From: Verrucomicrobiales bacterium
GTDB taxonomy: Bacteria; Verrucomicrobiota; Verrucomicrobiia; Limisphaerales; UBA9464
Reading direction: 5' to 3'
Length of the DNA stretch: 64,000 nt
NCBI GenBank assembly: GCA_027490985.1
Contig: JAIXXC010000269.1
Coordinates: forward strand, 665 to 64,664
Shown: piece after piece, positions 12,441 through 38,584 of the stretch
Position numbering within the stretch: position 1 is the first letter of the stretch
How the letters are laid out: each line of letters starts with the position of its first letter
Made by a program: the position numbers and the translations under genes
The notes under the pieces: generated by a model
The model's database searches: none
Seen by the model: only the letters and a program-made list of their open reading frames with translations
Told to the model about the DNA's origin: nothing

Positions 12441-14276
12441 TCACTTGCGGGCTTCTCGCCAGTACGGGCGATCGGCCACGAAGAGGTATCCGTTTTCGGG
12501 ATATCGGTCGCCGAAGGCGAACTTCAGCGGGAACCCCGAGGGGATGTTGCCCTGCCGCAGCAGGTAATCCATGTAGAAGCGCCCCCAGACCGCATCCGGG
12601 TCGTTGAGCAGCTTGGAATGCCACAACTGGTCGCAAGTCAGCGGAGTCAGCAGCAGGGCGCTGAACGGACGCTGGAAGTCGTGGATCTGGTAGAAATCCT
12701 CCTTGGGATCCTGACCGGCCCTCAGGGTCAGCGGCATCGCATCCAGATGCCCGTACCAGGCGACGGCATGGGGCATGTCGCTCAAGACCATCGCCCCCGG
12801 CGGCAAGTATCCCAGCAACTGCCGGATCACCGGCAGGTAGTACGGGGGATTGGCCATCACCGGCTGGCGCGGCGGCAGGAGCGAGAGGACGAAGGGCATC
12901 AGGCAGAGCCCCAGAGGCACCACCATGGCCATCCATCGCGCCAGCGGGTACGGGAAGTCGAACGAATCCAGCGCCCAGCGGAAGACAACCGCCGCATACA
13001 GACAGGCCAGCGGCACGAACCACGCCAGGAGGTTCTCGGAGTTCAGGAACGGGGAGAGGGTGGACAGGTGCGTCTGGATGAGCGCCTGAGCCGGCACCAG
13101 GGCCATGATCATCGCCAGCAACAACCACCGGAAGCGGTTCATGCGGGCATCGCCCATCGGCAGCAGCAACCCGACCAGCAGGAAGGCGCCGAACCAGTTG
13201 CCGAACATGCGCGGCACGTCGTTCGACAGGATGAACTGCGAATTGCTCAGCACCTTGGCCAGCACCTCGGCCAGACGCACCCTCGAGAAGTCCGGATTCT
13301 GGGAGCGCTCCAATTGGTCTTCGGTGAAGGCGGGAGTGCCGACCAGCGGAGCCAGGGTGGCGACCCCCAGAGGCAGGCCGCTCCGAAGGACATTGCGCGC
13401 CATCCACGGAGTGGCCAACAGCAGGAACGCCAGCAACAGGCACCCCACGGTGCGGATCCGCGCCTCGGCCGGAGCCCACCAGCCCACGCAAATGGCCACC
13501 GGCAGGACGAGGAAGCCGAAGGCATACGAAATCAGGAAACCCACCCCCAGCAACCCTCCAAGGACGGCCGACCAGACCGCGTACCGGAACGTCACGACGC
13601 GCGGGCGCCCGTCGTCATCGGGATCGGCCGCGCCGCCGATGCGCAGGGCGACCACGGCCACCATCACGCACAGCAGGGCCAACCACACGGTGGGCAGGCC
13701 CGAGAAGGCGAAATCCCAATTCAACTTCGACCCGGCGAACACCACCACCGCCATGACCCCGATGGACACCTCGAACCATCGACGTCCCACCTGGTACAGC
13801 AGGAACACCAACGAGAGGAATCCGGCGAAATTGAGGCATCCCACCGCCACCTCGGCCGGCGGACGACGCCGAGGCCCCGCCTCCACGCCATAGACCCACC
13901 GATCGGGCAGCACCTTGAACAAGACCCCCAACACGGCGGGATACAGGGGCGGGTGCGAAATGTCGGGGTGGGCCGCCCTGATCAACGTCCGGGGGTCGGT
14001 CCCCGCCTGCGTGGCCCGGGGCGCCTGCAGATGCAGACTCAATGGGCGGATGATCTGGGTGGTGAAACCACGCCCCTCGGCCAGACTGCGTCCCAACTGG
14101 GCCTGATCCATCGCTTCGACCGCGGTGAAATTCTTCACCCCGTCGATGTGGTACAACCCGAGGGCGATGAGGGTGAGCAGCAGCACGATGAACCGCTGGA
14201 GCCACACCCGACCCCGACCTTCTTCAAGGCTGTGGATGAGTTCCTGGATGCCCTTGGGCGGTTCGTTGTACTGCAT
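12441..14276 (-). CDS. Large polytopic membrane protein, possibly GT-C (ArnT/PMT-like) glycosyltransferase fold
   Basis: 611 aa with many hydrophobic helices. The first loop, VEAMDQAQLGRSLAEGRGFTT, resembles the DE/EA..A..A motif loop of GT39/ArnT-type enzymes, and a soluble C-terminal domain follows. The CDS is well supported; the function is tentative. Confidence 0.6.
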   Translation of the reverse strand: MQYNEPPKGIQELIHSLEEGRGRVWLQRFIVLLLTLIALGLYHIDGVKNFTAVEAMDQAQLGRSLAEGRGFTTQIIRPLSLHLQAPRATQAGTDPRTLIRAAHPDISHPPLYPAVLGVLFKVLPDRWVYGVEAGPRRRPPAEVAVGCLNFAGFLSLVFLLYQVGRRWFEVSIGVMAVVVFAGSKLNWDFAFSGLPTVWLALLCVMVAVVALRIGGAADPDDDGRPRVVTFRYAVWSAVLGGLLGVGFLISYAFGFLVLPVAICVGWWAPAEARIRTVGCLLLAFLLLATPWMARNVLRSGLPLGVATLAPLVGTPAFTEDQLERSQNPDFSRVRLAEVLAKVLSNSQFILSNDVPRMFGNWFGAFLLVGLLLPMGDARMNRFRWLLLAMIMALVPAQALIQTHLSTLSPFLNSENLLAWFVPLACLYAAVVFRWALDSFDFPYPLARWMAMVVPLGLCLMPFVLSLLPPRQPVMANPPYYLPVIRQLLGYLPPGAMVLSDMPHAVAWYGHLDAMPLTLRAGQDPKEDFYQIHDFQRPFSALLLTPLTCDQLWHSKLLNDPDAVWGRFYMDYLLRQGNIPSGFPLKFAFGDRYPENGYLFVADRPYWREARK

Positions 14277-23191: not shown

Positions 23192-24196
23192 ATGATCTCC
23201 GTGCCACCCCTGCGACCCCGACGCCCCATCGACGGCATCTCCGCCGTGCTCCTGCCCTTCCAGGCCGACGGACGCCCCGACCGTGAGTCCTGGGCGGCGT
23301 TGGTCGAACGGACCTGGGCGGCCGGCCTGACTCCGGCCGTGAACATGGACACCGGCTACGCGAACCTGCTGAGCGCCTCCGAACGGGGCGAGTTTCTCGC
23401 CGAAGCCGGCCGGATGTCCCGCGGTCGGCGGTTCGTGGCCGGCGCGTACATCGAGGGGCTGACCGGCGATCCGGCTTCGCTGTACGCCCGCGAGGCGAGC
23501 GCCATCCATTCGGCCGGCGGCACCCCCATCCTCTTCCCCTGCTCGACCACCCAGCATTGGGATCGCGAGCAGACCGTGGCGCTGTTCCAGGCCATCGGCC
23601 GGGCCGTGCCGCAATTCCTCGGTTTCGAACTCGGCACCATGTTCGTTCCCTTCGGCCGCATCTGGGATCTCGACACCTTCCGAGCGCTGCTCGAGGTGCC
23701 GCAACTCGTCGGAGCCAAACACAGCTCGCTCAGCCGGGATCTGGAATGGCAACGACTGACGGTGCGTGACGCGGTCCGACCCGAATTCCGGGTGTACACG
23801 GGCAACGATCTGGCCATCGACCTCGTCCAGTGGGGCAGCGATTACCTGCTGGGCCTATCGGCCTTCCATGTGGAGGCCTTCGCGGCCCGCGATCGGGCCT
23901 GGGCCCGGGGCGACGGTCGATTCTTCGAATTGAACGACTGGTTGCAGTACCTGGGCATGATCGCCTTCCGCGCTCCGGTGCCCGCCTACAAACACACCTG
24001 CGCCCAGTTCCTCAAGCTGCGGGGTGTCATTCCCTGCGACGCGCCACACCCGCGGGGAGCCCGCCGTCCCGATTCCGACCTCCCGCTCCTGCAGCCCATC
24101 GCCGAGCACCTCGAAGCCCTCACCGCCGAGTGCGCCAGCGACTCGGCCCCCGTCCCCAGCACCGTAGCTCAAGACATCGGCCTGAAAAACCAGTAG
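23192..24196 (+). CDS. Dihydrodipicolinate synthase/N-acetylneuraminate lyase-family (class I aldolase-like) protein
   Basis: From ATG 23192: ISAVLLPFQADGRPD...AAGLTPAVNMDTGYANLLSASER...VGAKHSS (candidate Schiff-base Lys). TIM-barrel DHDPS-like pattern with a divergent GTTGE region. The specific function is unknown. Confidence 0.65.
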   Translation: MISVPPLRPRRPIDGISAVLLPFQADGRPDRESWAALVERTWAAGLTPAVNMDTGYANLLSASERGEFLAEAGRMSRGRRFVAGAYIEGLTGDPASLYAREASAIHSAGGTPILFPCSTTQHWDREQTVALFQAIGRAVPQFLGFELGTMFVPFGRIWDLDTFRALLEVPQLVGAKHSSLSRDLEWQRLTVRDAVRPEFRVYTGNDLAIDLVQWGSDYLLGLSAFHVEAFAARDRAWARGDGRFFELNDWLQYLGMIAFRAPVPAYKHTCAQFLKLRGVIPCDAPHPRGARRPDSDLPLLQPIAEHLEALTAECASDSAPVPSTVAQDIGLKNQ

Positions 24197-24207
24197 GCTC
24201 CGCCGCG

Positions 24208-25812
24208 ATGCCGGACATCGTCCTGTCCACCCTCAACGCGAAGTACCTCCACGCCTCCTTCGGGTTGCGCTGTCTCATGGCCAACCTCGGGGAGTTGCGA
24301 CCGCGGGCCGCGATCCTCGAGTTCGACATCAATCAACGCCCCCTCGACATCGCCGAGGCGCTGCTCGAGGCGAACCCGCGCCTCCTCGGACTGGGCGTGT
24401 ACGTCTGGAACGCGGGCCCCACCCTCGAACTGCTGGGCATCCTGCGCCGCCTCAGGCCCGACCTCATCGTGGTGCTGGGCGGGCCCGAGGTCAGCTACGA
24501 GTGGGACCGCCAACCCCTGGTGGGCCTCGCCGATCACGTGATCACCGGTGAGGCCGACCTGGCCTTCGCCACGCTGTGCCGGGACCTGCTCTCGGACACC
24601 GCCCCCCGACCTCCCAAACTCATCGCCGCTCCGGTGCCCGATGTGGCCGGCTTGACCCTGCCGTACGACCTGTACGAGGACCGCGATCTGGAACATCGCG
24701 TCGTCTACGTCGAGGCCTCCCGGGGTTGCCCCTTCACCTGCGAGTTCTGCCTGAGCTCGCTGGAGATCCCCGTGCGGCAATTCCCGCTCGAGCCCTTCTT
24801 GTCGGCCATGCAACGGCTGCACGACCGGGGCCTGCGTCGGTTCAAGTTCGTGGACCGCACGTTCAACCTGAATCTGGCCACCAGCCGACGCATCCTCGAG
24901 TTCTTCCTCGAGCGCCTGAGTCCCGAACTCTTCGTCCATTTCGAGATGATCCCCGACCGGTTGCCGGCGGAACTGCGGGAACTCATCGCCCGATTCCCGG
25001 CGGGCACCCTGCAATTCGAGGTGGGCATCCAGACCTTCGATCGGCAGGTCGAGGCCCGGATCAGCCGACGCCAGAATCACGAGCGCTTGGACGACAACTT
25101 CCGATGGCTCCGGCAGCACAGCGGCGTGCACCTGCATGCCGACCTGATCGCGGGACTCCCGGGCGAGACCCTGGAATCGTTCGGGAAGGGCTTCGATCGC
25201 CTGATCGGACTCGGGCCCCAGGAGATCCAGGTCGGCATCCTCAAGCGCCTGCGCGGCACGCCGATCATCCGGCACGATGTCGAGTGGCAGATGGTCTACA
25301 ATCCGCACCCGCCCTATGAGGTGCTTTCCACCCGCACCATGGACTTCGCCACGCTGGCCCGACTGCGACGGTTTGCGAAGTTCTGGGACCTCTTCGGCAA
25401 CAGCGGCAATTTCGTGGAAAGCCTGCCGATGCTGTGGAACACGCCGGTTGCATCCGAATCCGGCCCCGACCGCCCGGCCAGTCCTGACAGCCCAGAAACC
25501 GACCCTGCGCCCGGTTCGGCCTTCCGGGCCATGCTCGCCTGGAGCGATTGGCTGCACTCGCAGGGCGTGAAAGGCCACGGCATTGCGCTGCCCCGCCAAT
25601 ATGAACTGCTCTGGCGCGGGGCGACCGAGGTGTTCGGAATCCCCTCCGCCACGTTCGGATCCGCGCTGGCACGGGACTATCGACGACCGGGACGGGCCGA
25701 CCTGCCCTCCTGGCTCGCGCCCTATGCCGGAGTCGAATCCACCCCGCGCCGGGCGGGCCGCCTGCCCCGCCGACAAGCCCGCCATCTGGGGGCGACGGTG
25801 TCTGCGGACTGA
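24208..25812 (+). CDS. B12-binding-domain radical SAM protein (DUF4080-type C-terminus)
   Basis: From ATG 24208 there is an N-terminal B12-binding-like domain (LSTLNAKYLHASFGLRCL...LGLGVYVWN), then the radical SAM cluster motif ASRGCPFTCEFC. It starts 12 nt after the preceding gene. Confidence 0.8.
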   Translation: MPDIVLSTLNAKYLHASFGLRCLMANLGELRPRAAILEFDINQRPLDIAEALLEANPRLLGLGVYVWNAGPTLELLGILRRLRPDLIVVLGGPEVSYEWDRQPLVGLADHVITGEADLAFATLCRDLLSDTAPRPPKLIAAPVPDVAGLTLPYDLYEDRDLEHRVVYVEASRGCPFTCEFCLSSLEIPVRQFPLEPFLSAMQRLHDRGLRRFKFVDRTFNLNLATSRRILEFFLERLSPELFVHFEMIPDRLPAELRELIARFPAGTLQFEVGIQTFDRQVEARISRRQNHERLDDNFRWLRQHSGVHLHADLIAGLPGETLESFGKGFDRLIGLGPQEIQVGILKRLRGTPIIRHDVEWQMVYNPHPPYEVLSTRTMDFATLARLRRFAKFWDLFGNSGNFVESLPMLWNTPVASESGPDRPASPDSPETDPAPGSAFRAMLAWSDWLHSQGVKGHGIALPRQYELLWRGATEVFGIPSATFGSALARDYRRPGRADLPSWLAPYAGVESTPRRAGRLPRRQARHLGATVSAD

Positions 25813-25831: not shown

Positions 25832-27034
25832 TCATGGGTGCTGCGCCACCGGACGGTACCAGTTGTCGCGTTGCACCGGCTCGAATCCCAGTTCGCTGAT
25901 GAGACGTTTCATGTCGGCCACGCCCATGCGGAAGGTGGTCCCCGCCGAGCTCACCACGTTCTCTTCGATCATGATCGAGCCGAGATCGTTGGCTCCATGC
26001 AGCAAGGCCACCTGCCCCACCTCGGGCCCCTGGGTCACCCACGAACTCTGCACGCTCGGGATGTTGTCGAGATAGATCCGGGCCAGGGCCTGCATGCGCA
26101 GGTATTCGTGGGATCCGACGGTCGTGGCCTTGAGGACGGTGTTCTCGGGCTGGAAGGTCCAGGCGATGAAGGCCGTGAAGGCGCCGCCGTTGATCCGTCC
26201 GAGCTCCATCGCCTCGGCATAGGCCGCCGACCGGTCTGCGGGAGACGGGCCGGTCGTCAAGCGACCCGAGTCCACCAATCGCTGCAGCGACACATCCTGT
26301 TGGGCGCGAACCACCTCCAGATGCTGGATGCGCTCCTCCACGGTTTCCACGTGTCCGAACATCATGGTCACCGAACTGGCCAGACCCAGACGATGGGCGA
26401 TGTCCATCACTCCCATCCACTGGGCGGTGTTCGCCTTGAGCGGAGCGATGCGCTGGCGGACCCGGTCGACGAGGATCTCGCCGCCGCCGCCGGGCAGGCT
26501 GCCCAACCCGGCCGCCACGAAATCCCGGAGCACCGTCTCGACCGGTTCGTTGAAGAACTCGGAGAAGGCCACGAACTCGCTGGGACTGAACCCGTGGACA
26601 TTGAATCCCGGGTACTTCGTGCGGACGTGATGCAGCAAATCCAGATACCATTGCTTGGTCAGCTTGGGGTGATGACCGCCCTGCATGAGCATCTGGGTGC
26701 CGCCAAGGGCCAGGGTTTCCTCGATCTTCCGATCGAGCTCCTCCAGCGTGATCACATAGGAGTCGGCGTCCTTCTCGGTCCGCCAGAAGGCGCAGAACTT
26801 GCAATACACATTGCATACGTTGGTGTAGTTGACGTTCCGGTCCACGATGTAGGACACGGTCTCGGCCCCGCGACCCGCATGCGTCCGGCTCCGGGCCAGC
26901 CGACGACGTCGGTCGGCCAGGGCGCCCAACTCCGACAAGGGCAATCCGTACAAGGCCAACGCCTCCGCTGCGTCGATCCGCCCGCCCTCCCAGACGCGCT
27001 GCAACAACTCATCCCGCGAAGCATCCAACACCAT
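25832..27034 (-). CDS. Radical SAM enzyme of the futalosine menaquinone pathway (MqnC/MqnE family)
   Basis: 400 aa. VDRNVNYTNVCNVYCKFCAFWR (CxxxCxxC), GGTQMLMQGGHHP, and GLGSLPGGGGEIL are typical of the CofH/MqnC/MqnE group. I cannot separate MqnC from MqnE by eye. Confidence 0.8.
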   Translation of the reverse strand: MVLDASRDELLQRVWEGGRIDAAEALALYGLPLSELGALADRRRRLARSRTHAGRGAETVSYIVDRNVNYTNVCNVYCKFCAFWRTEKDADSYVITLEELDRKIEETLALGGTQMLMQGGHHPKLTKQWYLDLLHHVRTKYPGFNVHGFSPSEFVAFSEFFNEPVETVLRDFVAAGLGSLPGGGGEILVDRVRQRIAPLKANTAQWMGVMDIAHRLGLASSVTMMFGHVETVEERIQHLEVVRAQQDVSLQRLVDSGRLTTGPSPADRSAAYAEAMELGRINGGAFTAFIAWTFQPENTVLKATTVGSHEYLRMQALARIYLDNIPSVQSSWVTQGPEVGQVALLHGANDLGSIMIEENVVSSAGTTFRMGVADMKRLISELGFEPVQRDNWYRPVAQHP

Positions 27035-29550: not shown

Positions 29551-31221
29551 GTGACGTTTGAACACCTGCTGCGGAAGAACGCCCTTCTTCCCGAAGACAA
29601 GATCGCCGAGGCCAAACACCTGGAGGCCGCCGAAGGGCTGCGCCTCGACCGGGCCGTGGTGCAGCTCGGGCTGATGACCGAACGTGCGGTGCTCACGATC
29701 ATGGCCGAGCAGCTGATGCTGCCCTTGCTCGATTTGTCGGCCACCGAGATCCCCTCCGACATCCTCCAGTCGCTGACCACCAAGGTGGTGTTCCGCAAGC
29801 GCATCGTGCCCATCGCCCGCGAAGGCAACACCCTGCGCGTGGCCACCTGCGATCCCTTCGACCTCTATGCGATGGACGATGTGCGGATGACCACCGGGTT
29901 GCAGATCGACACGGTCCTGGCCACCAAGGACGACATCGAGAAGCTCATCAAGACCCACTACGGATTGGGTGGCGACACGCTCGACGAACTGGCCGCCAAC
30001 GACGATGAACCCAGTGGCCCCGTCTCCGGGGGTGGCGGCGAAGACCTGCTGGAGATGGCGCAGGAGGCCTCGGTCATCCGACTGGTCAACGAAATCATCG
30101 TCGAGGCCGTGCATGAGCGCGCCAGCGACATCCACATCGAGCCCTACGAGCACCAGATGGCCATCCGGTACCGGATCGACGGTGTGCTGCACGAGGCCTC
30201 GGTGCCGCCCCAGATGAACCGGTTTCAGGCGGCCATCATCTCGCGCATCAAGATCCTGGCGAATCTGAATATCGCCGAGCGGCGCATCCCGCAGGATGGC
30301 CGCATCAAGTTCAACGTGGGCGGCCGGCAGATCGACGTCCGCGTCTCGGTGATCCCCATGTTGTTCGGCGAGGGCGTGGTCATGCGTCTGCTCGACAAGG
30401 CCAACGTGCTCTTCACCCTGCCCCAGCTGGGCATGGATCCCGAAACGTACGGCCGATTCCGGGGCCTCATCGAACGCCCCCACGGGATCGTCCTGGTCAC
30501 CGGCCCCACCGGTTCCGGCAAAACCACGACCCTCTACGCCTCGCTCAACGAAATCGTCGGCCCCACCCTCAAGGTGCTCACCGTCGAAGACCCGGTCGAA
30601 TACCACCTGCAGGGCGTAAACCAGATTCCCGTCGACCACAAGGTGGGCATGACCTTCGAGGCCGGCTTGCGGGCCATCCTGCGTCACGACCCGGATGTGG
30701 TGATGATCGGCGAAATCCGCGATGTGGAGACCGCGCGGGCGGCCATTCAGGCCTCGCTGACGGGCCATCTGGTGCTGTCCACACTGCACACCAACGACTC
30801 GGCCTCGGCAGCCACCCGTTTGATCGACATGGGTGTGGAACCCTTCCTCATCGCCAGCAGTCTGGCCGGGGCCATGGCCCAGCGCCTGGTGCGCAAGATC
30901 TGCTCCAAGTGCCGGGCTCCCTACACGCCCGACCATTCCAAATTCCCGCGCGATTTCTCCCTGGAACCCGGCGCCCAACTCTATCGGGGCGAAGGTTGTG
31001 ACCACTGCCGCAAAACCGGTTATCGCGGACGCTCCGGCCTCTACGAACTGCTCTGCATCGACGAGGAGATCGCCCAGATGATCGTCGCCCGGGAGTCGGC
31101 TCCCAAGATCATCCAGTCGGGGCGCCGCACCGGCCTGCGCCTGCTCCGCGAAGACGGCTGGATGAAGGTCCGCCAGGGCATCACCTCGGTGGACGAAGTC
31201 CTCACCTGCACCGCCCTCTGA
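29551..31221 (+). CDS. GspE/PilB-family secretion ATPase (type II secretion / type IV pilus assembly)
   Basis: GTG start. N-terminal T2SSE_N-like domain, Walker [15 protein letters not shown], Asp/His boxes, and the tetracysteine motif CSKCRAPY...[12 protein letters not shown]. Confidence 0.9.
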
Positions 31222-31228
31222 AACGGCC

Positions 31229-32422
31229 ATGCCGAAGTTCCGCTACACCGCACTCAACGCCGACGGCCGCCAGGTCTCCGGCCAACTCGAGGCCGAAGGC
31301 GAAGCCGCTGCGGTGCGGATGCTGGGCGAGCGCCAACTCTTCCCGGTCAGCATCGCCTCGGCCGATGCCTCCCAGTCCAAGCGCCGCCGCGTCTCCAGCC
31401 GCGACATCGGCATGATGTACGGTCAGTTGGCCGACCTGATCGGCTCGGGCGTGCCCATGCTGCGGGCGCTCGATTCCCTGATCCGCTCCACGGTCAACAG
31501 CCAGCTCAAGGCGATCCTCAAGGAGGTCCGCACGGCGGTGGCCGACGGCCAGACCCTCACCGATGCGTTGCGGAAGTTCCCCGAGGTATTCCCGCCGTTG
31601 CACACCTCGATGGTCCAGGCCGGCGAGCGGGCGTCGTTCCTGGAAGACGTCTTGCGTAGCCTCTCCGAGTTCCTCGAGCGCCTCGACGAACTGCGCGCCA
31701 AGGTGATGGGAGCCATGATCTACCCGGCCCTGCTCTCAGCCCTCGGAGCCACGGTCATGGCCGGCGCCCTCATCTTCTTCGTGCCGAAATTCGAGCCTCT
31801 GCTCGCCGGGGCCCAAAAACCCCTGCCCACCGTGTTGCTCTTCGGGGCCAGCACGATCCTGCGCAGCTATTGGTACATCGTGGCCCTGGTCTTGGCGGGG
31901 TTGATCGGAGCTCTCGTGTCGGCCCTGCGCAAGGAGTCGTCCCGACGCACACTCGAAATCTGGCAACATCGCGTCCCGGTGGTGGGCACCGCGCTCAAGA
32001 TGCTGGCGATCACCCGCTTCTGCCGCATTCTCGGCACCATGCTGGCCAACGGCGTGCCCATGCTGGGGGCGCTCAAGATCGCCAAGGATGCCACGGGTTC
32101 CCGCTTGCTGGGCGAGAAGATCGCCATCGCCGCCGAGAGCATCCGCGATGGCAAGTCGCTCTCGGGCCCCTTGTCGCAGGGCGGGCTCTTTCCCGACCAG
32201 ATCATGGCCATGATCACCGTGGCCGAGGAGTCCAACAAACTCGACAAGGTGCTCCTGCAGATCGCCAACACGGTGGAACGCCGCACCAATCAGCAGGTCG
32301 ACCAATCGGTGCGTCTGATCGAGCCGGTCATCCTGTGCCTGGTCGCCGCCGGCATCGGCTTCCTCGCGCTCGGCCTGCTGCTGCCGATCTTCACGCTGGC
32401 CGGTTCGCTCGGGAAACACTGA
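31229..32422 (+). CDS. GspF/PilC-family platform protein (type II secretion system F)
   Basis: 397 aa with duplicated T2SSF domains, three TM segments, and the typical N-terminus MPKFRYTALNADGRQVSG. Confidence 0.9.
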   Translation: MPKFRYTALNADGRQVSGQLEAEGEAAAVRMLGERQLFPVSIASADASQSKRRRVSSRDIGMMYGQLADLIGSGVPMLRALDSLIRSTVNSQLKAILKEVRTAVADGQTLTDALRKFPEVFPPLHTSMVQAGERASFLEDVLRSLSEFLERLDELRAKVMGAMIYPALLSALGATVMAGALIFFVPKFEPLLAGAQKPLPTVLLFGASTILRSYWYIVALVLAGLIGALVSALRKESSRRTLEIWQHRVPVVGTALKMLAITRFCRILGTMLANGVPMLGALKIAKDATGSRLLGEKIAIAAESIRDGKSLSGPLSQGGLFPDQIMAMITVAEESNKLDKVLLQIANTVERRTNQQVDQSVRLIEPVILCLVAAGIGFLALGLLLPIFTLAGSLGKH

Positions 32423-32492: not shown

Positions 32493-33992
32493 ATGAACAA
32501 CACCTCCCCCTGGCATCGCTCCCGGGCCCACGCGCCGGTCACGCGTCGGGAATTCCTGTGGCGTTCCGGCGGTGGATTGGGCGGCATCGCCTTGGCGTCG
32601 CTGCTGAATCACGACTCCCTGCTCGCGGGCCCGTCCACCGGGGCGGCCAAACTTCCTCCAGGCCGCCCACGGGCCAAGCGGGTGATCCAACTCTTCATGG
32701 CGGGCGCCGCCAGCCATGTGGATCTCTGGGACTACAAACCCTTCCTCGAACAACACCACGGGGAGAAATGGGATCCCGGTGAGGCCGTGGAGCTGTTCCA
32801 AGACGGGCTGGGTTCCACCTTCGCCTCGCCTTGGAAGTTCAAGCCTTACGGGCAGAGCGGCAAACATCTCAGCGAGGTCGTGGCCCCGCTCGGTCGTTGC
32901 GTCGACGACATGGCCTTCATCCACAATCTCGTGGGGAGGAGCGGCGTCCATTCCCAGGCCACCCTGCTGCAAGCCACCGGATTCCTGACCCCGGGATTTC
33001 CGGGCATGGGGTGCTGGACCAGCTACGGGCTGGGCTCACTCAACGAAAACCTGCCCACCTTCGTGGTGATGCCCGACCTCCGCGGCATGCCCTCCAACGG
33101 AGCCAAGAACTGGGACTCGGCCTTCCTGCCCGCGGAACATCAGGGGACACTCATCCGGGTCGGATCCGAGAACCCCATCGAGGCTCTGTTCCCACCGGCC
33201 GACAGCGGATTCATCACCCCCCGCTCCGAAGCCGACGGTCTGGCCGCCCTCGAACGCCTCAACCGGATCCATGCGGCCGCACGGCCCGGAGACCAGCGCC
33301 TCGAGGCCCGCATCCGCACCTACGAACTCGCGGCCCGCATGCAGTTGGCGGCCCCGGAGGCGTTGGATCTGTCGAAGGAGCCGACCTGGATCCAGGAGGC
33401 CTACGGCATCGACAACACCACCAAGCAGTGGCCGGCGGAGATCAACGCGCCCGAAGAGACCGACATCATGGGCCGCAAATGCCTCACCGCCCGACGCCTC
33501 ATCGAGCGGGGCGTGCGGTTCGTGCAGATCTGGTCGGGCAACGACAACAGCTTTCCGCGTCGCAACTGGGACTCCCACGAGAACATCGCCCAAGACCATG
33601 GCCCGCTCGCCATGGGCATGGCCAAGCCCATCGCCGCACTCATCGAAGACCTCAAGCAACGCGGTCTCCTGGACGACACGATCATCCTCTGGACCACCGA
33701 GTTCGGCCGCATGCCCTGTGCCCAGGGCGGCAAGGGTCGCGACCACAATCCGTTCGTCTTCACCAACTGGCTGTGCGGCGGCGGCATCCGCGGCGGGATC
33801 ACCCATGGCCAGAGCGACCAGTGGGGCTACAAGCCGGCCGACCGGAGCAACGTCACCGAGGTGTACGACATCCACGCGACGATCCTGCACCTGCTGGGCA
33901 TCGACCACACCCGGTTGACTTTCCGCCACAACGGCGTCGACCGCCGCCTGACCGACGTCCACGGCGAGGTCATCCGGCCGCTTCTGGCCTAG
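32493..33992 (+). CDS. DUF1501 domain protein (sulfatase/phosphatase-like, Tat-exported)
   Basis: Twin-arginine signal TRREFLWRSGGGLGGIALASLL, VIQLFMAGAASHVDLWDYKP, and GRDHNPFVFTNWLCGGGIRGG are hallmark DUF1501 motifs. Confidence 0.85.
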   Translation: MNNTSPWHRSRAHAPVTRREFLWRSGGGLGGIALASLLNHDSLLAGPSTGAAKLPPGRPRAKRVIQLFMAGAASHVDLWDYKPFLEQHHGEKWDPGEAVELFQDGLGSTFASPWKFKPYGQSGKHLSEVVAPLGRCVDDMAFIHNLVGRSGVHSQATLLQATGFLTPGFPGMGCWTSYGLGSLNENLPTFVVMPDLRGMPSNGAKNWDSAFLPAEHQGTLIRVGSENPIEALFPPADSGFITPRSEADGLAALERLNRIHAAARPGDQRLEARIRTYELAARMQLAAPEALDLSKEPTWIQEAYGIDNTTKQWPAEINAPEETDIMGRKCLTARRLIERGVRFVQIWSGNDNSFPRRNWDSHENIAQDHGPLAMGMAKPIAALIEDLKQRGLLDDTIILWTTEFGRMPCAQGGKGRDHNPFVFTNWLCGGGIRGGITHGQSDQWGYKPADRSNVTEVYDIHATILHLLGIDHTRLTFRHNGVDRRLTDVHGEVIRPLLA

Positions 33993-34109: not shown

Positions 34110-35921
34110 TCAAGGAACCGGATTGGCTTCCCGCATCCGGGAAAGGGCTTCCCGCACCTGGGCATCGGCGGGATCGAGGGCCGCCGCCTTTTCCAACAAC
34201 GGCCGAGCCTCCGACAGACGGCCCTGATTGTAGCGGATCAGGCCCAGCATCGACGTCGCAAGGGCATCGGTGGGATCCAGGCGGACCGCGGCCGCGAACT
34301 CGGTGGCGGCCGCCTCGTCATGCCCCGCCTCGACCTCCAGCAACCCCAGGTTGCCGTGGGCCCGGACATGGTCGGGATTGGACTCCAGCGCCCGACGGAA
34401 CGCGGCGATGGCCTCCGCGGTCGCCCCCTTCATGCGATGGCAAAGCCCCAGACAATAGTGGGCCTCGTCGAGGCGCGGTGACAGCGCCAGCGCCTGAACG
34501 AACTCGGCCTCGGCCTCGGCGGTGCGCTGTTTCGCCAGGAAGGCCCGCCCCCGGTTCACATGCGCTGTGGCGTCCCGCGGATCGATGCGCAACCGCTCGG
34601 CATTGAACGCCAGCGTATCCCGGAGGGTGCGCTCGAAGTTCAGGGCATCCCAGGCCTTCCGGGTCGATGCCGATCGCGGCAGCAGTTGCAGCCAGACCTC
34701 GGCCATCTCATCGGTCGTGTCCGGGCCGAAGCGCACGCGTCGCGGCGGGCGATGGGGATTGCGGGGATTGCCCTCGGAGTTGTCGAAGCTCACCCGCATC
34801 TCCACCCGGGTGCCGGCCGGCAGGAAGACCGGACGGGTGTAGGCGTAGTCGCCCTGCCAATTGAAGTCCCAGTCCGGGATCAGGAAGAGCGAGCGTCCCG
34901 TGCCATCCGGAAAGGTGGCCCAGGCCTCGATCCTTCGGCCCAGATAATGGGCATGGGGCAGAACGCCCAGTAGATCCGCATCGGCGGGGATGCGCACCTC
35001 ATCCCGGACCGTCTGATTCGTGGCCCCAGGCGCGAGGTCGATCTGGTATTGGATGAGTGACAGCTTCACGGGCCGATGGATCGGGGCTTCGTCCGTGAAA
35101 TAGAACCCGATCTCCATCTGAAGCGGCTCCGGCTTGCCGAGGGGTTGCAGATGGACCTGAACCACCACGTCCTGACCCGGACGCAGCGTCCAGCTCATGC
35201 CCGGCCGATTCCGGCGCGGCCCCGCCCCCGGCTGCCAACTCGAAAACTGCCCGTCCGGAGTCTGGACGCCGGCCGGCGTGTCCATCCCCGGGAACCCGGG
35301 CTCCGGATCCAGTGCGTCACGACGGCGCGCCTCGCCCGTGGCATCAAGCCGGAGGAAGGCATGATGAGCGGCCCGCGACTTCGGGCGCAGTTCCCATTGC
35401 CGTACCTGGCGGGGTCGATCCAGCGACACGGGCAGGACGAAGTGTCGATAGACATCCCTCCCCGAGGCGGGCACCGAGTACGCCGTGGGCATCCGGACGA
35501 TGAGATCGGGTGGGCCGTCGGCCCACTCGCCGGGCCATTCGCGCGGCGGCGGACCTTGTGCAGGATCTCCCTCGGGCATCCCTCCGGCGACCCACCGGGC
35601 CAGGACGGACACGGCCTCCGGAGCCAGTCGACGTTCGCCCTGAAAGCCTTCGGGCTGCGGGGCCGGCAGCCACGGCGGCATCGCCCCGCGCCGGGTCACT
35701 TCGACGATCTCTCGGGCATGCTTCACCGCATCGGCGAAGGTCAGGAGCGAAAACGGACCCGACTGGCCCGGCCGATGACACTCCGCACAGTGGGTCTGGA
35801 GGATCGGAGCCACCGCCCCGTGGAAGGTCGGCGCCGATTCCGCCCCAGCGGCGAGTCCGACCCAAAGGGCCCCCACCCGGCCCAGCCCTCGGACGAACCC
35901 CATGACACTCCGAGGTTTCAT
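34110..35921 (-). CDS. Periplasmic heme-c motif / PHM-DBH-like copper monooxygenase-fold / TPR fusion protein
   Basis: Signal peptide from ATG 35921 (MKPRSVMGFVRGLGRVGALWVGLAAGAES) and heme motif CAECH. Candidate copper ligands lie in two beta-sandwich-like halves (AAHHAF ... LPHAHYLG ... TTDEMAEVW; compare PHM HH / HxH / DEMC). The C-terminus carries TPR repeats. The start codon forms an ATGA overlap with the upstream redoxin gene. Confidence 0.7.
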   Translation of the reverse strand: MKPRSVMGFVRGLGRVGALWVGLAAGAESAPTFHGAVAPILQTHCAECHRPGQSGPFSLLTFADAVKHAREIVEVTRRGAMPPWLPAPQPEGFQGERRLAPEAVSVLARWVAGGMPEGDPAQGPPPREWPGEWADGPPDLIVRMPTAYSVPASGRDVYRHFVLPVSLDRPRQVRQWELRPKSRAAHHAFLRLDATGEARRRDALDPEPGFPGMDTPAGVQTPDGQFSSWQPGAGPRRNRPGMSWTLRPGQDVVVQVHLQPLGKPEPLQMEIGFYFTDEAPIHRPVKLSLIQYQIDLAPGATNQTVRDEVRIPADADLLGVLPHAHYLGRRIEAWATFPDGTGRSLFLIPDWDFNWQGDYAYTRPVFLPAGTRVEMRVSFDNSEGNPRNPHRPPRRVRFGPDTTDEMAEVWLQLLPRSASTRKAWDALNFERTLRDTLAFNAERLRIDPRDATAHVNRGRAFLAKQRTAEAEAEFVQALALSPRLDEAHYCLGLCHRMKGATAEAIAAFRRALESNPDHVRAHGNLGLLEVEAGHDEAAATEFAAAVRLDPTDALATSMLGLIRYNQGRLSEARPLLEKAAALDPADAQVREALSRMREANPVP

Positions 35922-36565
35922 TGGCGGAAGCGGCACCCCACCGCCGCGGTCTCGAGTGCCAGCGGAGCCCCCGTGTTGAGGTACTCGTCGAGCGCTTCGG
36001 CCAGATCATGGCGGGTCGCCTCCGGCCGGGAAACCCCCAGTCGCTGGAACTGGTCATTGATCCGGCCGCGGTAGATCAACCGGCCTCGACGATCCAAGGC
36101 CACGGCCTCCGGGGTGTGATTGACGCGAAAGGCCCGGGCCACGCTCCCGTTCACGTCCTGGAAGGCAGGCACCTTCAACCCGTACTCGGCGCGGTGCCGA
36201 AGGATGTCATCGCGGGTTTCCCGCCCCTGGGCATAGACCCAAGCCCACTTCAGGCCCCGCGGCCCGAGTCTCTCCGCCAAGGCCTCGATCTCCGGCAAGC
36301 ACCGGTTGGCGATGGGGCAATCGATCGACAGGTAGACCAGCACCACACCGCGTTCCCCGACGCTCTCGACCAGCGGGCGTCGCCCGCCCTGAAGGTCCAC
36401 CCAGTCCAATCCCGAACCGACCAGCGACGGAGTGGCCGTGGACGATGGCGCACAACCGCTCGCAAACGGCAAAACCACCCCAGCAAACCCGGCCACCTGC
36501 AACAAGACCCCCAGCCTCCGACGGAGCTTCGGATACTCCTGGGGATTTCTCGAACGGCGAGTCAT
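35918..36565 (-). CDS. Thioredoxin-fold (redoxin/AhpC-TSA-like) lipoprotein
   Basis: Lipobox VVLPFASGC and thioredoxin-like core VVLVYLSIDCPIANRC...HTPEAVALDRRGRLIYRGRIND. Confidence 0.75.
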   Translation of the reverse strand: MTRRSRNPQEYPKLRRRLGVLLQVAGFAGVVLPFASGCAPSSTATPSLVGSGLDWVDLQGGRRPLVESVGERGVVLVYLSIDCPIANRCLPEIEALAERLGPRGLKWAWVYAQGRETRDDILRHRAEYGLKVPAFQDVNGSVARAFRVNHTPEAVALDRRGRLIYRGRINDQFQRLGVSRPEATRHDLAEALDEYLNTGAPLALETAAVGCRFRQ

Positions 36566-36727: not shown

Positions 36728-38584
36728 ATGTTCTTCCCCATGTTCGCCGCGGTCGATCCGTGGATCGTTTCCCTCAGTGCCCTGACGGTCCTGGTGACCG
36801 TGGGCATGGGCTTCTGGGCGGCCGGACGCGCCAAGAGCGCCTCCGACTTCTTCGTGGCCGGACGCGGCGTCTCCGTGGGCTGGAACGCGTCGGCGATCTC
36901 GGGTGAATACCTCTCGGCCGCCTCGTTCATGGGAGTGGCGGGCATGGTGATGTCCAGCGGCTACGATGCGCTGTGGTATCCGGTGTGCTACGCCTGCGGG
37001 TACCTCTTCCTGCTGCTGTTCATCGCGGGGCCGCTGCGTCGTTTCGGCGCCTACACCATTCCCGACTTCGCCGAGGGCCGCTACGACTCGCCTCTCTTCC
37101 GCAAGATCGCCGTCGTGTTCGTCCTCTTCATCGGATTCTTCTACACCATGCCCCAGATGAAGGGGGCGGGCACCACCCTGGCCTACGTGTTCCAGGAGGT
37201 GGATTTCCGGGAGACCTTCCTGGAGACACTGGCCCCGCACGGCGCCGACGGGGCCGCACTGAAGGGCTTTCCGTACTGGGCCGGGGTGGTGGTCGTCGGG
37301 GCGGTCATCACCCTGAATGTCGCCCTGGGCGGCATGAAGGGCATCACGCTGGTGCAGGCCTTCCAGTATTGGGCGAAGATGTTCGCCATCTCGGTGCCGG
37401 TGTTCGTGCTGATGGCGGTGCAGGGCCACTACGGCCAGCACCTGCAGGCCACCCAAGCGCACCCGCCTGCGGCCCAGGTCTCATCGGCCGAAGGCCTTGA
37501 GAGCGCCCAAAGCCTCGAAAGCGCCCGATGGGCGACCACCTTGAAGCGTGCGCCGTTGCCTCCCAAGGCACCGGGTGACTCGAGTTGGCTCAATCCCTTC
37601 GGTCCGCTCACCAGCAAATCGGCGAAGGCGGCCCACTTGAGCGCGGACGAATCCAAACCCTACGCGCTCCTGTACACCTATTCGCTGATCATCGCGTTGG
37701 TCTGCGGCACGGCCGGATTGCCCCACATCCTGGTCCGTTTCTATACCAACCCCGACGGCGCCGCCGCCAAGCGGACGACGATGTGGGTGATGATCCTCAT
37801 CGGCATCTTCTATGTGTTCCCGCCGGTGTTCGGCGTGATGGGTCGCAACCTGCTCCCCGCGCTCTACGAGGCCACCGGGGCCAAGGGGACCGACAAGATC
37901 GTGCTCGAACTGCCCAAGGTGATCGACGCGACCACCGGAGGCTCCGGCACGATCCCCTGGGGATCCGTCCTCTCCGGCATGACCTGCGCCGGAGCCTTCG
38001 CGGCCTTCATGAGCACCTTCAGCGGACTGCTGGTCTCGATGACCGGGGCACTGGCCCATGATGTGTACGGCCGGATCCTGCGCCCTCAGTCCACCGCCCA
38101 GGAACGGATGCAGATGTTCAAATGGTGCGCGGTGTTGCTGGGGGCGGTCTCCACCGTGCTCGGCTGTTTCGTGGAGCAACTCCAGATCAACTTCATGGTC
38201 GGACAGGCCTTCGCCATCGCCGCCGCCAGTTACTTCCCCCTCCTCTTCATGAGCGTGTGGTGGCGCGGCATGACGATGAAGGGTGCGGCGACCGGGATGC
38301 TCACCGGTGGCGTGTGCGCCCTGCTGACCGTCGCGCTGACCAACTTCTCCGATCTGAAGTGGCTGCCGCTGGGCGACTTCTGGGCCGCTCATCCCCTGCT
38401 GCGGATCCTGTGCGAGCAACCGGCCATCTGGTGCGTGCCGCTGGCCATCGGCCTGATGGTGCTGGTTTCCAAGGCGACCGCGGCCACCGTGCCGTCCGAC
38501 ATCCGGATGAAGATGCTGGTCCTCCATGCCCCGGAAGCCCTCGGCTTGCGCCAAGAGTACATCCGGGATCACGAGGGCCATTGA
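36728..38584 (+). CDS. actP: Cation/acetate symporter ActP-like (sodium:solute symporter family)
   Basis: From ATG 36728: DFFVAGRGVSVGWNASAISGEYLSAASFMGVAGMV...YTIPDFAEGRY...GLPHILVRFYTNPDG are typical SSF/ActP motifs. The upstream 800 nt of track ORF 35921-38584 is antisense to the redoxin gene. Confidence 0.85.
   Translation: MFFPMFAAVDPWIVSLSALTVLVTVGMGFWAAGRAKSASDFFVAGRGVSVGWNASAISGEYLSAASFMGVAGMVMSSGYDALWYPVCYACGYLFLLLFIAGPLRRFGAYTIPDFAEGRYDSPLFRKIAVVFVLFIGFFYTMPQMKGAGTTLAYVFQEVDFRETFLETLAPHGADGAALKGFPYWAGVVVVGAVITLNVALGGMKGITLVQAFQYWAKMFAISVPVFVLMAVQGHYGQHLQATQAHPPAAQVSSAEGLESAQSLESARWATTLKRAPLPPKAPGDSSWLNPFGPLTSKSAKAAHLSADESKPYALLYTYSLIIALVCGTAGLPHILVRFYTNPDGAAAKRTTMWVMILIGIFYVFPPVFGVMGRNLLPALYEATGAKGTDKIVLELPKVIDATTGGSGTIPWGSVLSGMTCAGAFAAFMSTFSGLLVSMTGALAHDVYGRILRPQSTAQERMQMFKWCAVLLGAVSTVLGCFVEQLQINFMVGQAFAIAAASYFPLLFMSVWWRGMTMKGAATGMLTGGVCALLTVALTNFSDLKWLPLGDFWAAHPLLRILCEQPAIWCVPLAIGLMVLVSKATAATVPSDIRMKMLVLHAPEALGLRQEYIRDHEGH

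Follow-up and report, generated by a model that had tools for sequence, protein, structure and literature searches.

Whether bacteria possess relatives of the copper monooxygenases that act on animal hormones and neurotransmitters is a question raised by a pair of genes in a 64,000-nt stretch of DNA from a Verrucomicrobiales bacterium (assembly GCA_027490985.1, contig JAIXXC010000269.1, positions 665 to 64,664), which is hereafter called the window. Both open reading frames (ORFs) of the pair, one for a redoxin-like predicted lipoprotein of 215 amino acids and the other for a large protein of 603 amino acids, were found on the minus strand just where a first-pass annotation of the sequence had placed them (Table 1). 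Peptidylglycine alpha-hydroxylating monooxygenase (PHM), dopamine beta-monooxygenase (DBH or DBM) and tyramine beta-monooxygenase (TBM) are the textbook noncoupled dicopper monooxygenases, which bind two copper ions ~11 Å apart and use O2 and two external electrons to hydroxylate a C–H bond. We consider it probable that the pair forms a two-gene periplasmic redox module, in which a core homologous to PHM and DBH would receive electrons from a heme c donor, tetratricopeptide repeats (TPRs) would serve for recruitment and a thioredoxin-fold lipoprotein would act as the partner.

Since searching the PDB directly with the sequence of the catalytic region gave nothing meaningful and Pfam and NCBIfam returned only TPRs and a weak cytochrome match, homology of the core was established by structure prediction and profile comparison. 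An AlphaFold2 (AF2) model of the large protein, calculated from an alignment of 38 homologues (mean predicted local distance difference test, pLDDT, of 90.4; predicted template modelling score, pTM, of 0.84), consisted of a helical domain (residues 33–112), two beta-sandwiches (140–415) and ten helices (418–599, paired from 451). When the PDB was searched with this model by Foldseek, the top match was rat PHM (3mll, E = 5e-13, ~290 columns, target TM = 0.63, 14–15% identity); the top matches included some thirty entries for PHM as well as human DBH (4zel, E = 9e-10), and the others among them were TPR proteins, so that the PHM-like fold suspected from the sequence was recovered. Profile alignment by hhalign against the PHM catalytic core (a query identical to PDB 4e4z_A, in which position i is PAM residue i+44) gave a probability of 85.6% (E = 5.6e-6, 242 columns) for the 38-sequence family profile, and 93.6% (E = 2.1e-7, 251 columns) for a profile of 100 diverse representatives at 50% identity. 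Both alignments brought the same residues of the large protein into register with the copper ligands of PHM, three at the electron-transfer site CuH and three at the oxygen-activating site CuM, together with a conserved Gln and the D-E-M motif (Table 1). The PHM/DBH ligand pattern that had been read by eye from AAHHAF (at residue 184), LPHAHYLG (at 321) and TTDEMAEVW (at 402) was thereby borne out.

These positions are strictly conserved. In a family alignment made with a profile hidden Markov model (HMM), the six putative copper ligands were kept in 269 of 270 members, the lone exception being a truncated fragment (CuH ligands H186, H187 and H257 in 270/270; CuM ligands H323, H325 and M406 in 269/270). 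E405 and, mostly, D404 and Q255 were retained alongside the six ligands across the family, and further invariant residues near the sites belong to the motifs WDFNWQG and DNSxxNxxNP. In the 38-homologue alignment, which reaches down to 43% identity, C45, C48, H49, M81, H186, H187, H257, H323, H325, E405 and M406 were all invariant, as were many Trp, Pro and Gly residues. The heme motif CAECH, noted earlier and located at residues 45–49, is likewise a family feature: CxxCH was observed in 258 of the 270 members, all 12 exceptions lacked the N-terminus, and Met81 was kept in every non-truncated member as well.

The family is large. By phmmer with the core (residues 88–425) against 1.84 billion cluster representatives (clusters at 50% identity), 9,192 clusters were obtained at E ≤ 1e-3, 5,357 at E ≤ 1e-10 and 1,434 at E ≤ 1e-30. 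Residues 1–440 have at least 3,527 homologues, and these, where named, are called only 'tetratricopeptide repeat protein', 'TadD' or 'cytochrome c family'.

On either side of the core, the large protein carries the two other parts that had been proposed. The N-terminal part has the features of a class I cytochrome c, namely the invariant CxxCH with the distal Met81, a small helical domain and a signal peptide; we infer from the last that the protein is exported, and it would be matured as a c-type cytochrome. Its score on the Pfam model Cytochrome_CBB3 (residues 40–86, E = 2e-4) was 22 bits and thus under the cut-off of 27, so that the cytochrome domain was not confirmed by the HMM search in the window protein, whereas a relative, P0121, passed the cut-off with 34 bits. 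The closest PDB sequences to the cytochrome domain alone were OmcF-type monoheme cytochromes, with non-significant values (E = 0.4–0.6). The C-terminal TPRs anticipated by the first-pass annotation did exceed the Pfam thresholds over residues ~450–600 (TPR_2 with 81.5 bits and E = 1.4e-23, TPR_16 with 80.2 bits, TPR_11 and others), and only TPR families were reported in an NCBIfam scan of the large protein. The TPR array is variable: it is absent in some members from Acidobacteriota and Planctomycetota and far longer in others, with proteins of up to 1,117 amino acids. The only cysteines of the large protein are C45 and C48 of the heme motif and C490 and C494 in the TPR domain. Two observations on domain structure may be added here. 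D552 (34266-34268), inside the TPR domain, is invariant in 118 of 120 close relatives and variable family-wide, a possible sign that the TPR of the window subfamily makes a specific contact. P0121 (1064 amino acids) contains a tandem duplication of the cytochrome-c and PHM-like unit, with EF-hands following each copy (near 511–528 and 1024–1041).

The second component of the proposed module is the redoxin. In a locus scan with one genome per species, at least 577 enzyme loci were confirmed, mostly in Verrucomicrobiota and also in Planctomycetota, Acidobacteriota and a Haliangiales metagenome-assembled genome (MAG). Among the 56 loci that we call well flanked, i.e. with 1.5 kb or more of sequence to either side, a redoxin gene adjoins the enzyme gene in 23 (in 19 it lies immediately upstream and in the same orientation, in 2 it lies downstream and in 2 it is divergent), and redoxin-adjacent loci occur in Verrucomicrobiota, Planctomycetota, Acidobacteriota and a Myxococcota MAG. 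All relatives at 50% identity or more that have enough upstream sequence carry the redoxin (locus L007, with ~420 nt upstream, is not judgeable), and a large Verrucomicrobiota clade at 41–48% identity has none within 6 kb. The two proteins are also found fused in both orders, the redoxin forming the N-terminal part of P0231 (L084:4001-6118) and following the TPRs at the C-terminus of P0147. Adjacency and fusion together show that the link between redoxin and enzyme, which the annotation had noted at this single locus, is real.

No conserved neighbour other than the redoxin was found in 80 related loci. Genes for DUF1501, sulfatase, PA14/Ig, prepilin-type and TPR proteins recur near the loci at no fixed position, a DUF1501 gene lying within 6 kb in 6 of the 80. 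These families are abundant in the phyla concerned, and DUF1501 (sulfatase-like) is highly multiplied in them; the proximity of DUF1501 to the module is probably due to chance. In one Verrucomicrobiia MAG (DASYTB01), at least two paralogues of the enzyme were observed (L035 and L046), neither with a redoxin nearby, which suggests a subfamily expansion independent of the redoxin. In a Planctomycetales MAG, a gene beside the module (L017:4076-6136, minus strand) encodes a 686-aa protein composed of UnbV_ASPIC, AhpC-TSA and TPR domains, a further case of a redoxin domain combined with TPRs.

The identity of the redoxin was then assessed from its motifs, its model and its relatives. Its N-terminus shows a basic n-region, a hydrophobic stretch and the sequence FASG-C38, which fits a Prosite-type lipobox pattern, as do the N-termini of 23 of 38 homologues at the pattern level; the earlier designation as a lipoprotein therefore agrees with the sequence. 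Public gene calls of the redoxin in 98%-identical relatives (L081:4480-4986 and L082:4325-4831) give 168 amino acids without signal peptide and lipobox. Because the N-terminal lipobox is conserved in homologues, the 215-aa form is supported and the 168-aa calls are probably too short. The redoxin exceeded the cut-offs of two Pfam models, AhpC-TSA (with 31.3 bits) and Redoxin (with 31.1 bits). With the AF2 model of the redoxin (pLDDT 85.8), Foldseek gave as best matches 2cvb/2ywo, 2ywi and 3u5r (E = 4e-12 to 6e-11, target TM = 0.73), followed by ResA, TlpA-like proteins, DsbE and Bcp/PrxQ; the family profile retrieved 2cvb, 2ywi and 3u5r from the PDB sequences at E = 6e-25 to 3e-22. The match to these proteins of Thermus thermophilus (2CVB/2YWO), Geobacillus kaustophilus (2YWI) and Sinorhizobium (3U5R, SMc02350) covers both fold and profile and includes the C-terminal extension with its GC motif, which is present in 2CVB, 2YWI and 3U5R, whereas ResA, TlpA and DsbE are more distant structural relatives. 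Their PDB names are generic ('hypothetical conserved protein', 'uncharacterized protein', 'probable thiol-disulfide isomerase/thioredoxin'). Unlike them, the redoxin is a predicted lipoprotein and is genetically tied to a copper enzyme.

As for the active site, C83 corresponds to the second Cys in the CNHCP motif of 2cvb/2ywi and to the Cys of SNRCP in 3u5r; thus the redoxin family (x-x-[DE]-C-P) and 3U5R keep the second Cys only, whereas 2CVB and 2YWI have CNHC-P. C83-P84 was invariant in 38 database homologues and present in 34 of 35 locus-derived partners. The first-pass annotation had taken CPIANRC for a redox motif, and its Cys-Pro part is indeed conserved; on the other hand, a reading as a Cx5C redox pair was rejected, since relatives have A, V, Y or F in place of Cys89. 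Invariance was observed for C83, P84, N87, H124, D137, T151-P152-E153, Y165, G167, R168, G177, L188, A191 and G210-C211, among which T151-P152-E153 forms the cis-Pro loop that, together with the fold matches, marks a thioredoxin fold. C83 alone is conserved, and where a CxxC would have its first Cys the family has D or E. The peroxiredoxin context PxxxTxxC was not found either, with Leu76 at −7 and Ser80, which varies among relatives, at −3. A role as a Sco-like chaperone, considered for the 'NHTP' beside the cis-Pro, was discarded because His150 is not conserved; neither a CxxxC nor, at E ≤ 1, a match to Pfam SCO1-SenC was detected. Judged by its sequence, the redoxin is a single-active-site-Cys member of an uncharacterised thioredoxin-fold group and not a CxxC protein, a canonical peroxiredoxin or a Sco chaperone, with Cys211 as its likely second cysteine.

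By analogy with PHM, DBH and cytochrome-tethered copper enzymes, we infer for the module the following metal content, electron path, O2 chemistry and role of the redoxin. Each beta-sandwich would hold one copper, in a His3 electron-transfer site CuH (H186, H187, H257) and a His2Met oxygen-activating site CuM (H323, H325, M406). The N-terminal heme c would take single electrons from periplasmic respiratory carriers and reduce CuH in place of ascorbate, and CuM would bind O2 and hydroxylate a C–H bond of the substrate, and each turnover would consume two electrons. The C-terminal TPR array, which is variable, would most likely recruit a protein or lipoprotein partner or substrate, and the upstream redoxin lipoprotein, with C83 and C211, would most likely be a thiol reductant or protector of the enzyme or of its substrate.

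This arrangement can be compared with known systems. The two-beta-sandwich fold, the CuH and CuM ligands, the Gln (Gln170 in PHM, Gln255 here) and D-E-M are common to the large protein and PHM, the core of PAM (1PHM, 1OPM, 1SDW, 3MLL). Unlike PHM, the large protein is bacterial, begins with a heme c and ends with a TPR array, and lacks a PAL partner; its electron donor is presumably something other than ascorbate. DBH and TBM (4ZEL) share the same catalytic fold and ligand set, and DBH likewise has an extra domain before the core and a C-terminal domain after it; however, the former is a DOMON domain in DBH and a c-type cytochrome (CxxCH) in the large protein, and the latter is a dimerisation domain in DBH and TPRs here. 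In cytochrome-c-fused copper nitrite reductases, and in cellobiose dehydrogenase, whose cytochrome domain feeds lytic polysaccharide monooxygenases, a tethered cytochrome passes single electrons to copper. The principle would be the one proposed for the large protein, although the folds and the chemistry of those copper domains differ.

Several observations weigh against the proposed module. Neither Cu2_monooxygen (PF01082) nor Cu2_monoox_C (PF03712) of Pfam matched the window protein at E ≤ 1, so that the HMM comparison foreseen by the first-pass annotation succeeded for the TPRs but not for the copper domains. PF01082 also failed to match any of 10 distant relatives, and both Cu2 models stayed below their gathering scores, the second sandwich of 7 of these 10 reaching subthreshold values on PF03712 (15.9–22.6 bits against a cut-off of 23, E = 8e-5 to 9e-3). 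Identity to PHM is only 14–15%. The residues with which PHM binds peptidyl-glycine, R240, N316 and Y318, are replaced in the hhalign alignment by L321, E408 and W410 (family-wide, mostly Tyr at the first position, D/E/T/N at the second and variable at the third), and the five disulfides of PHM are missing, the core having no Cys; the chemistry could therefore differ. Moreover, a redoxin gene is missing within 6 kb at 33 of the 56 well-flanked loci, indicating that the partner is not obligatory in cis. A PHM/DBH-like core is nevertheless supported by fold, profile homology and conservation, with curated HMM thresholds not reached. On these sequence differences the large protein is not a PHM orthologue: with the carboxylate-binding residues of PHM replaced, its substrate would not be peptidyl-glycine, and it probably differs between subfamilies. 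The unreached Pfam catalytic-domain models and the missing substrate residues and disulfides would also fit a non-catalytic core serving for binding or electron transfer, for example a beta-sandwich from the PHM/PNGase F superfamily that binds copper or carbohydrate, in a protein that would simply be a tethered cytochrome with adaptor function, the more so as TPR proteins are frequently scaffolds. We regard this as very unlikely, because the retention of six ligands, E405 and mostly D404 and Q255 over thousands of clusters is hard to explain without metal sites, and because the many invariants around the sites (WDFNWQG, DNSxxNxxNP) indicate a constrained active site.

Other alternatives concern the redoxin. 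It could be a maturation factor of the TlpA/Sco type, which delivers or reduces copper for CuH and CuM, or else the enzyme's own substrate, held by the TPR domain. TlpA/ResA-type proteins among its fold matches, the tight gene order, the fusions in both orders, a TPR domain suited to protein–protein contact and invariants beyond the cysteines (N87, H124, Y165, R168) are all consistent with such a role; on the other hand, the redoxin has no Sco-type CxxxC...H set, with His150 not conserved and SCO1-SenC unmatched, 8 of the 11 well-flanked loci that lack TPRs keep the redoxin, which shows that the TPR is unneeded for the partnership, and many enzymes have no redoxin nearby, so that we consider this explanation unlikely. 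Somewhat less likely still would be a module against peroxide or oxidative stress, in which the redoxin is a 1-Cys or atypical 2-Cys peroxidase and the heme-copper protein uses electrons from the respiratory chain either on O2, H2O2 or superoxide or to return the redoxin to its reduced state. The scores on AhpC-TSA and Redoxin, the single 'CP' Cys with a distal invariant Cys as in atypical peroxiredoxins, Bcp/PrxQ among the fold matches, one source that labels a redoxin homologue 'peroxiredoxin', and the joint working of the two proteins evident from fusion and adjacency would agree with it. However, the nearest relatives of the redoxin are the 2cvb/2ywi/3u5r group and the ResA/TlpA-type reductases and not peroxiredoxins, the Prx context PxxxTxxC is missing (Leu76 at −7, Ser80 at −3), and strict His2Met and His3 sites in a PHM fold are the signature of a C–H hydroxylase, which removal of peroxide does not need. 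All of these alternatives fit the strict conservation of both copper sites less well than does the two-gene monooxygenase module.

If that module is taken further, the family may be the first prokaryotic one of PHM/DBH-type noncoupled dicopper monooxygenases, distributed over Verrucomicrobiota, Planctomycetota and Acidobacteriota, wired to the respiratory chain by its fused cytochrome, provided with a dedicated single-Cys lipoprotein partner and acting on an envelope substrate (protein, lipoprotein or glycan) with a pocket that diverges by subfamily, and the animal enzymes that make hormones and neurotransmitters may have their bacterial ancestry in it; we put this forward as a tentative possibility. 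Superfamily-level resources do tag some bacterial proteins as PHM-like. The view that bacterial members are functionally uncharacterised stood up in our searches: no model of Pfam (models up to 2025) or NCBIfam 20.0 lies over residues 120–420 of the large protein, and a full-text literature search, with subscription literature outside its scope, found no paper describing bacterial members. A comparative review of cuproproteomes has PHM and DBM among the entries of its eukaryote column (PMC7435645), and a 2025 review of copper peptide-processing enzymes covers only PHM, DBM, TBM and the plant BURP cyclase, with bacterial relatives unmentioned (PMC12164859). If the family is active, its ~9,200 clusters with the full ligand set would greatly widen the known range of this chemistry, and the built-in heme donor would allow the long-debated electron transfer from CuH to CuM to be studied directly without ascorbate. 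Activity would also suggest that, in bacteria abundant in soil and water, the cell envelope undergoes an unknown oxidative modification, and it would open the question of the origin of the animal enzymes and flag a gap in curated domain libraries.

Table 1. Position of the redoxin gene, the large gene and their features in the window, with the PHM residues aligned to the candidate copper sites.
Feature	Window position	Strand	Remark
Redoxin-like gene	35918..36565	(-)	215 aa, stop codon included; ORF
Redoxin signal peptide and lipobox, residues 1-38, ...LPFASG-C38	36452..36565	(-)	Predicted; read from sequence
Redoxin Cys83-Pro84	36314..36319	(-)	Conserved active site; first Cys of CPIANRC
Redoxin Cys89	36299-36301	(-)	Not conserved
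Redoxin Gly210-Cys211, near C-terminus	35933..35938	(-)	Invariant; candidate resolving/partner cysteine
Large gene, exported cytochrome c / PHM-like / TPR protein	34110..35921	(-)	603 aa, stop codon included; ORF
ATGA junction	35918..35921	(-)	Redoxin stop overlapping first in-frame ATG of large gene; ...CGCCAATGAAACC...
Alternative start of large gene	35901..35911	(-)	GGAG 35908-35911, 4 nt, ATG 35901-35903 (Met7)
Sec-type signal peptide, residues 1 to ~27, ...LAAGA/ES	35841..35921	(-)	Predicted; read from sequence; low pLDDT in model
Mono-heme class-I-like cytochrome c domain, residues ~30-115	35577..35834	(-)	Four helices in model
Heme motif C45-A-E-C48-H49	35775-35789	(-)	Invariant
Met81, in MPPW	35679-35681	(-)	Candidate axial ligand; invariant
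N-terminal beta-sandwich, residues ~135-285	35067..35519	(-)	Equivalent of PHM CuH domain; Foldseek, hhalign
His186/His187	35361-35366	(-)	Putative CuH ligands; PHM H107/H108 in both hhalign alignments
Gln255	35157-35159	(-)	CuH site; PHM Q170, conserved Gln two residues before H172, in both hhalign alignments
His257	35151-35153	(-)	Putative CuH ligand; PHM H172 in both hhalign alignments
C-terminal beta-sandwich, residues ~286-416	34674..35066	(-)	Equivalent of PHM CuM domain; Foldseek, hhalign
His323-x-His325	34947-34955	(-)	Putative CuM ligands; PHM H242/H244 in both hhalign alignments
WDFNWQG motif, at residue 351		(-)	In CuM-equivalent sandwich
D404-E405-Met406	34704-34712	(-)	CuM site; DEM motif, PHM D312-E313-M314 (M314 = CuM ligand) in both hhalign alignments
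Linker helix and 4-5 TPRs, residues 417-603	34113..34673	(-)	Pfam TPR models and AF2 helices

The start of the large gene bears on how the two genes are coupled. The ORF encodes 603 amino acids from the ATG at 35921, or 608 if an upstream GTG is used, and a second ATG (Met7) follows 18 nt downstream of the first. The translational coupling by an ATGA overlap that had been claimed at the outset is only partly upheld: the overlap is present in the sequence, but the Met7 start with its GGAG is equally a model and is the one used in public gene calls for 98%-identical relatives (P0001), where it gives 597 amino acids and leaves 14 nt between the redoxin stop and the large gene. The ATGA overlap is thus one of two plausible start models, and the start of the large gene is ambiguous. 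Whichever start is used, the two genes lie on one strand with a spacing of 0–15 nt, and their co-transcription and tight coupling are very likely.

Plus-strand genes flank the pair on both sides, namely a convergent DUF1501 gene (32493..33992) and a divergent sodium:solute symporter gene (~36728..38584), so that the redoxin gene and the large gene stand as a two-gene unit. The window protein had no exact counterpart in public assemblies; a 98%-identical relative has the same synteny as the window. The genomic context in the window (PriA, sigma-54, helicase, radical-SAM, T2SS E/F, SSF symporter, L9) gave no functional clue to the pair.

Some further genes of the window were recorded. Genes for a T2SSE ATPase (556 aa) and a T2SSF platform protein (397 aa) of a type II secretion or type IV pilus system (29551-32422, plus strand) adjoin the DUF1501 gene, and this synteny is retained only among the 98%-identical relatives. 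Beside priA lies a 611-aa ORF (12441-14276, minus strand) with a coding-like GC content at third codon positions (GC3) of 0.87 and no Pfam match at E ≤ 1e-5. A gene for a B12-binding radical-SAM protein with DUF4080 (23830-25812, plus strand) is convergent to a CofH/MqnC-type radical-SAM gene (25832-27034, minus strand), and the latter suggests that menaquinone is synthesised via the futalosine route.

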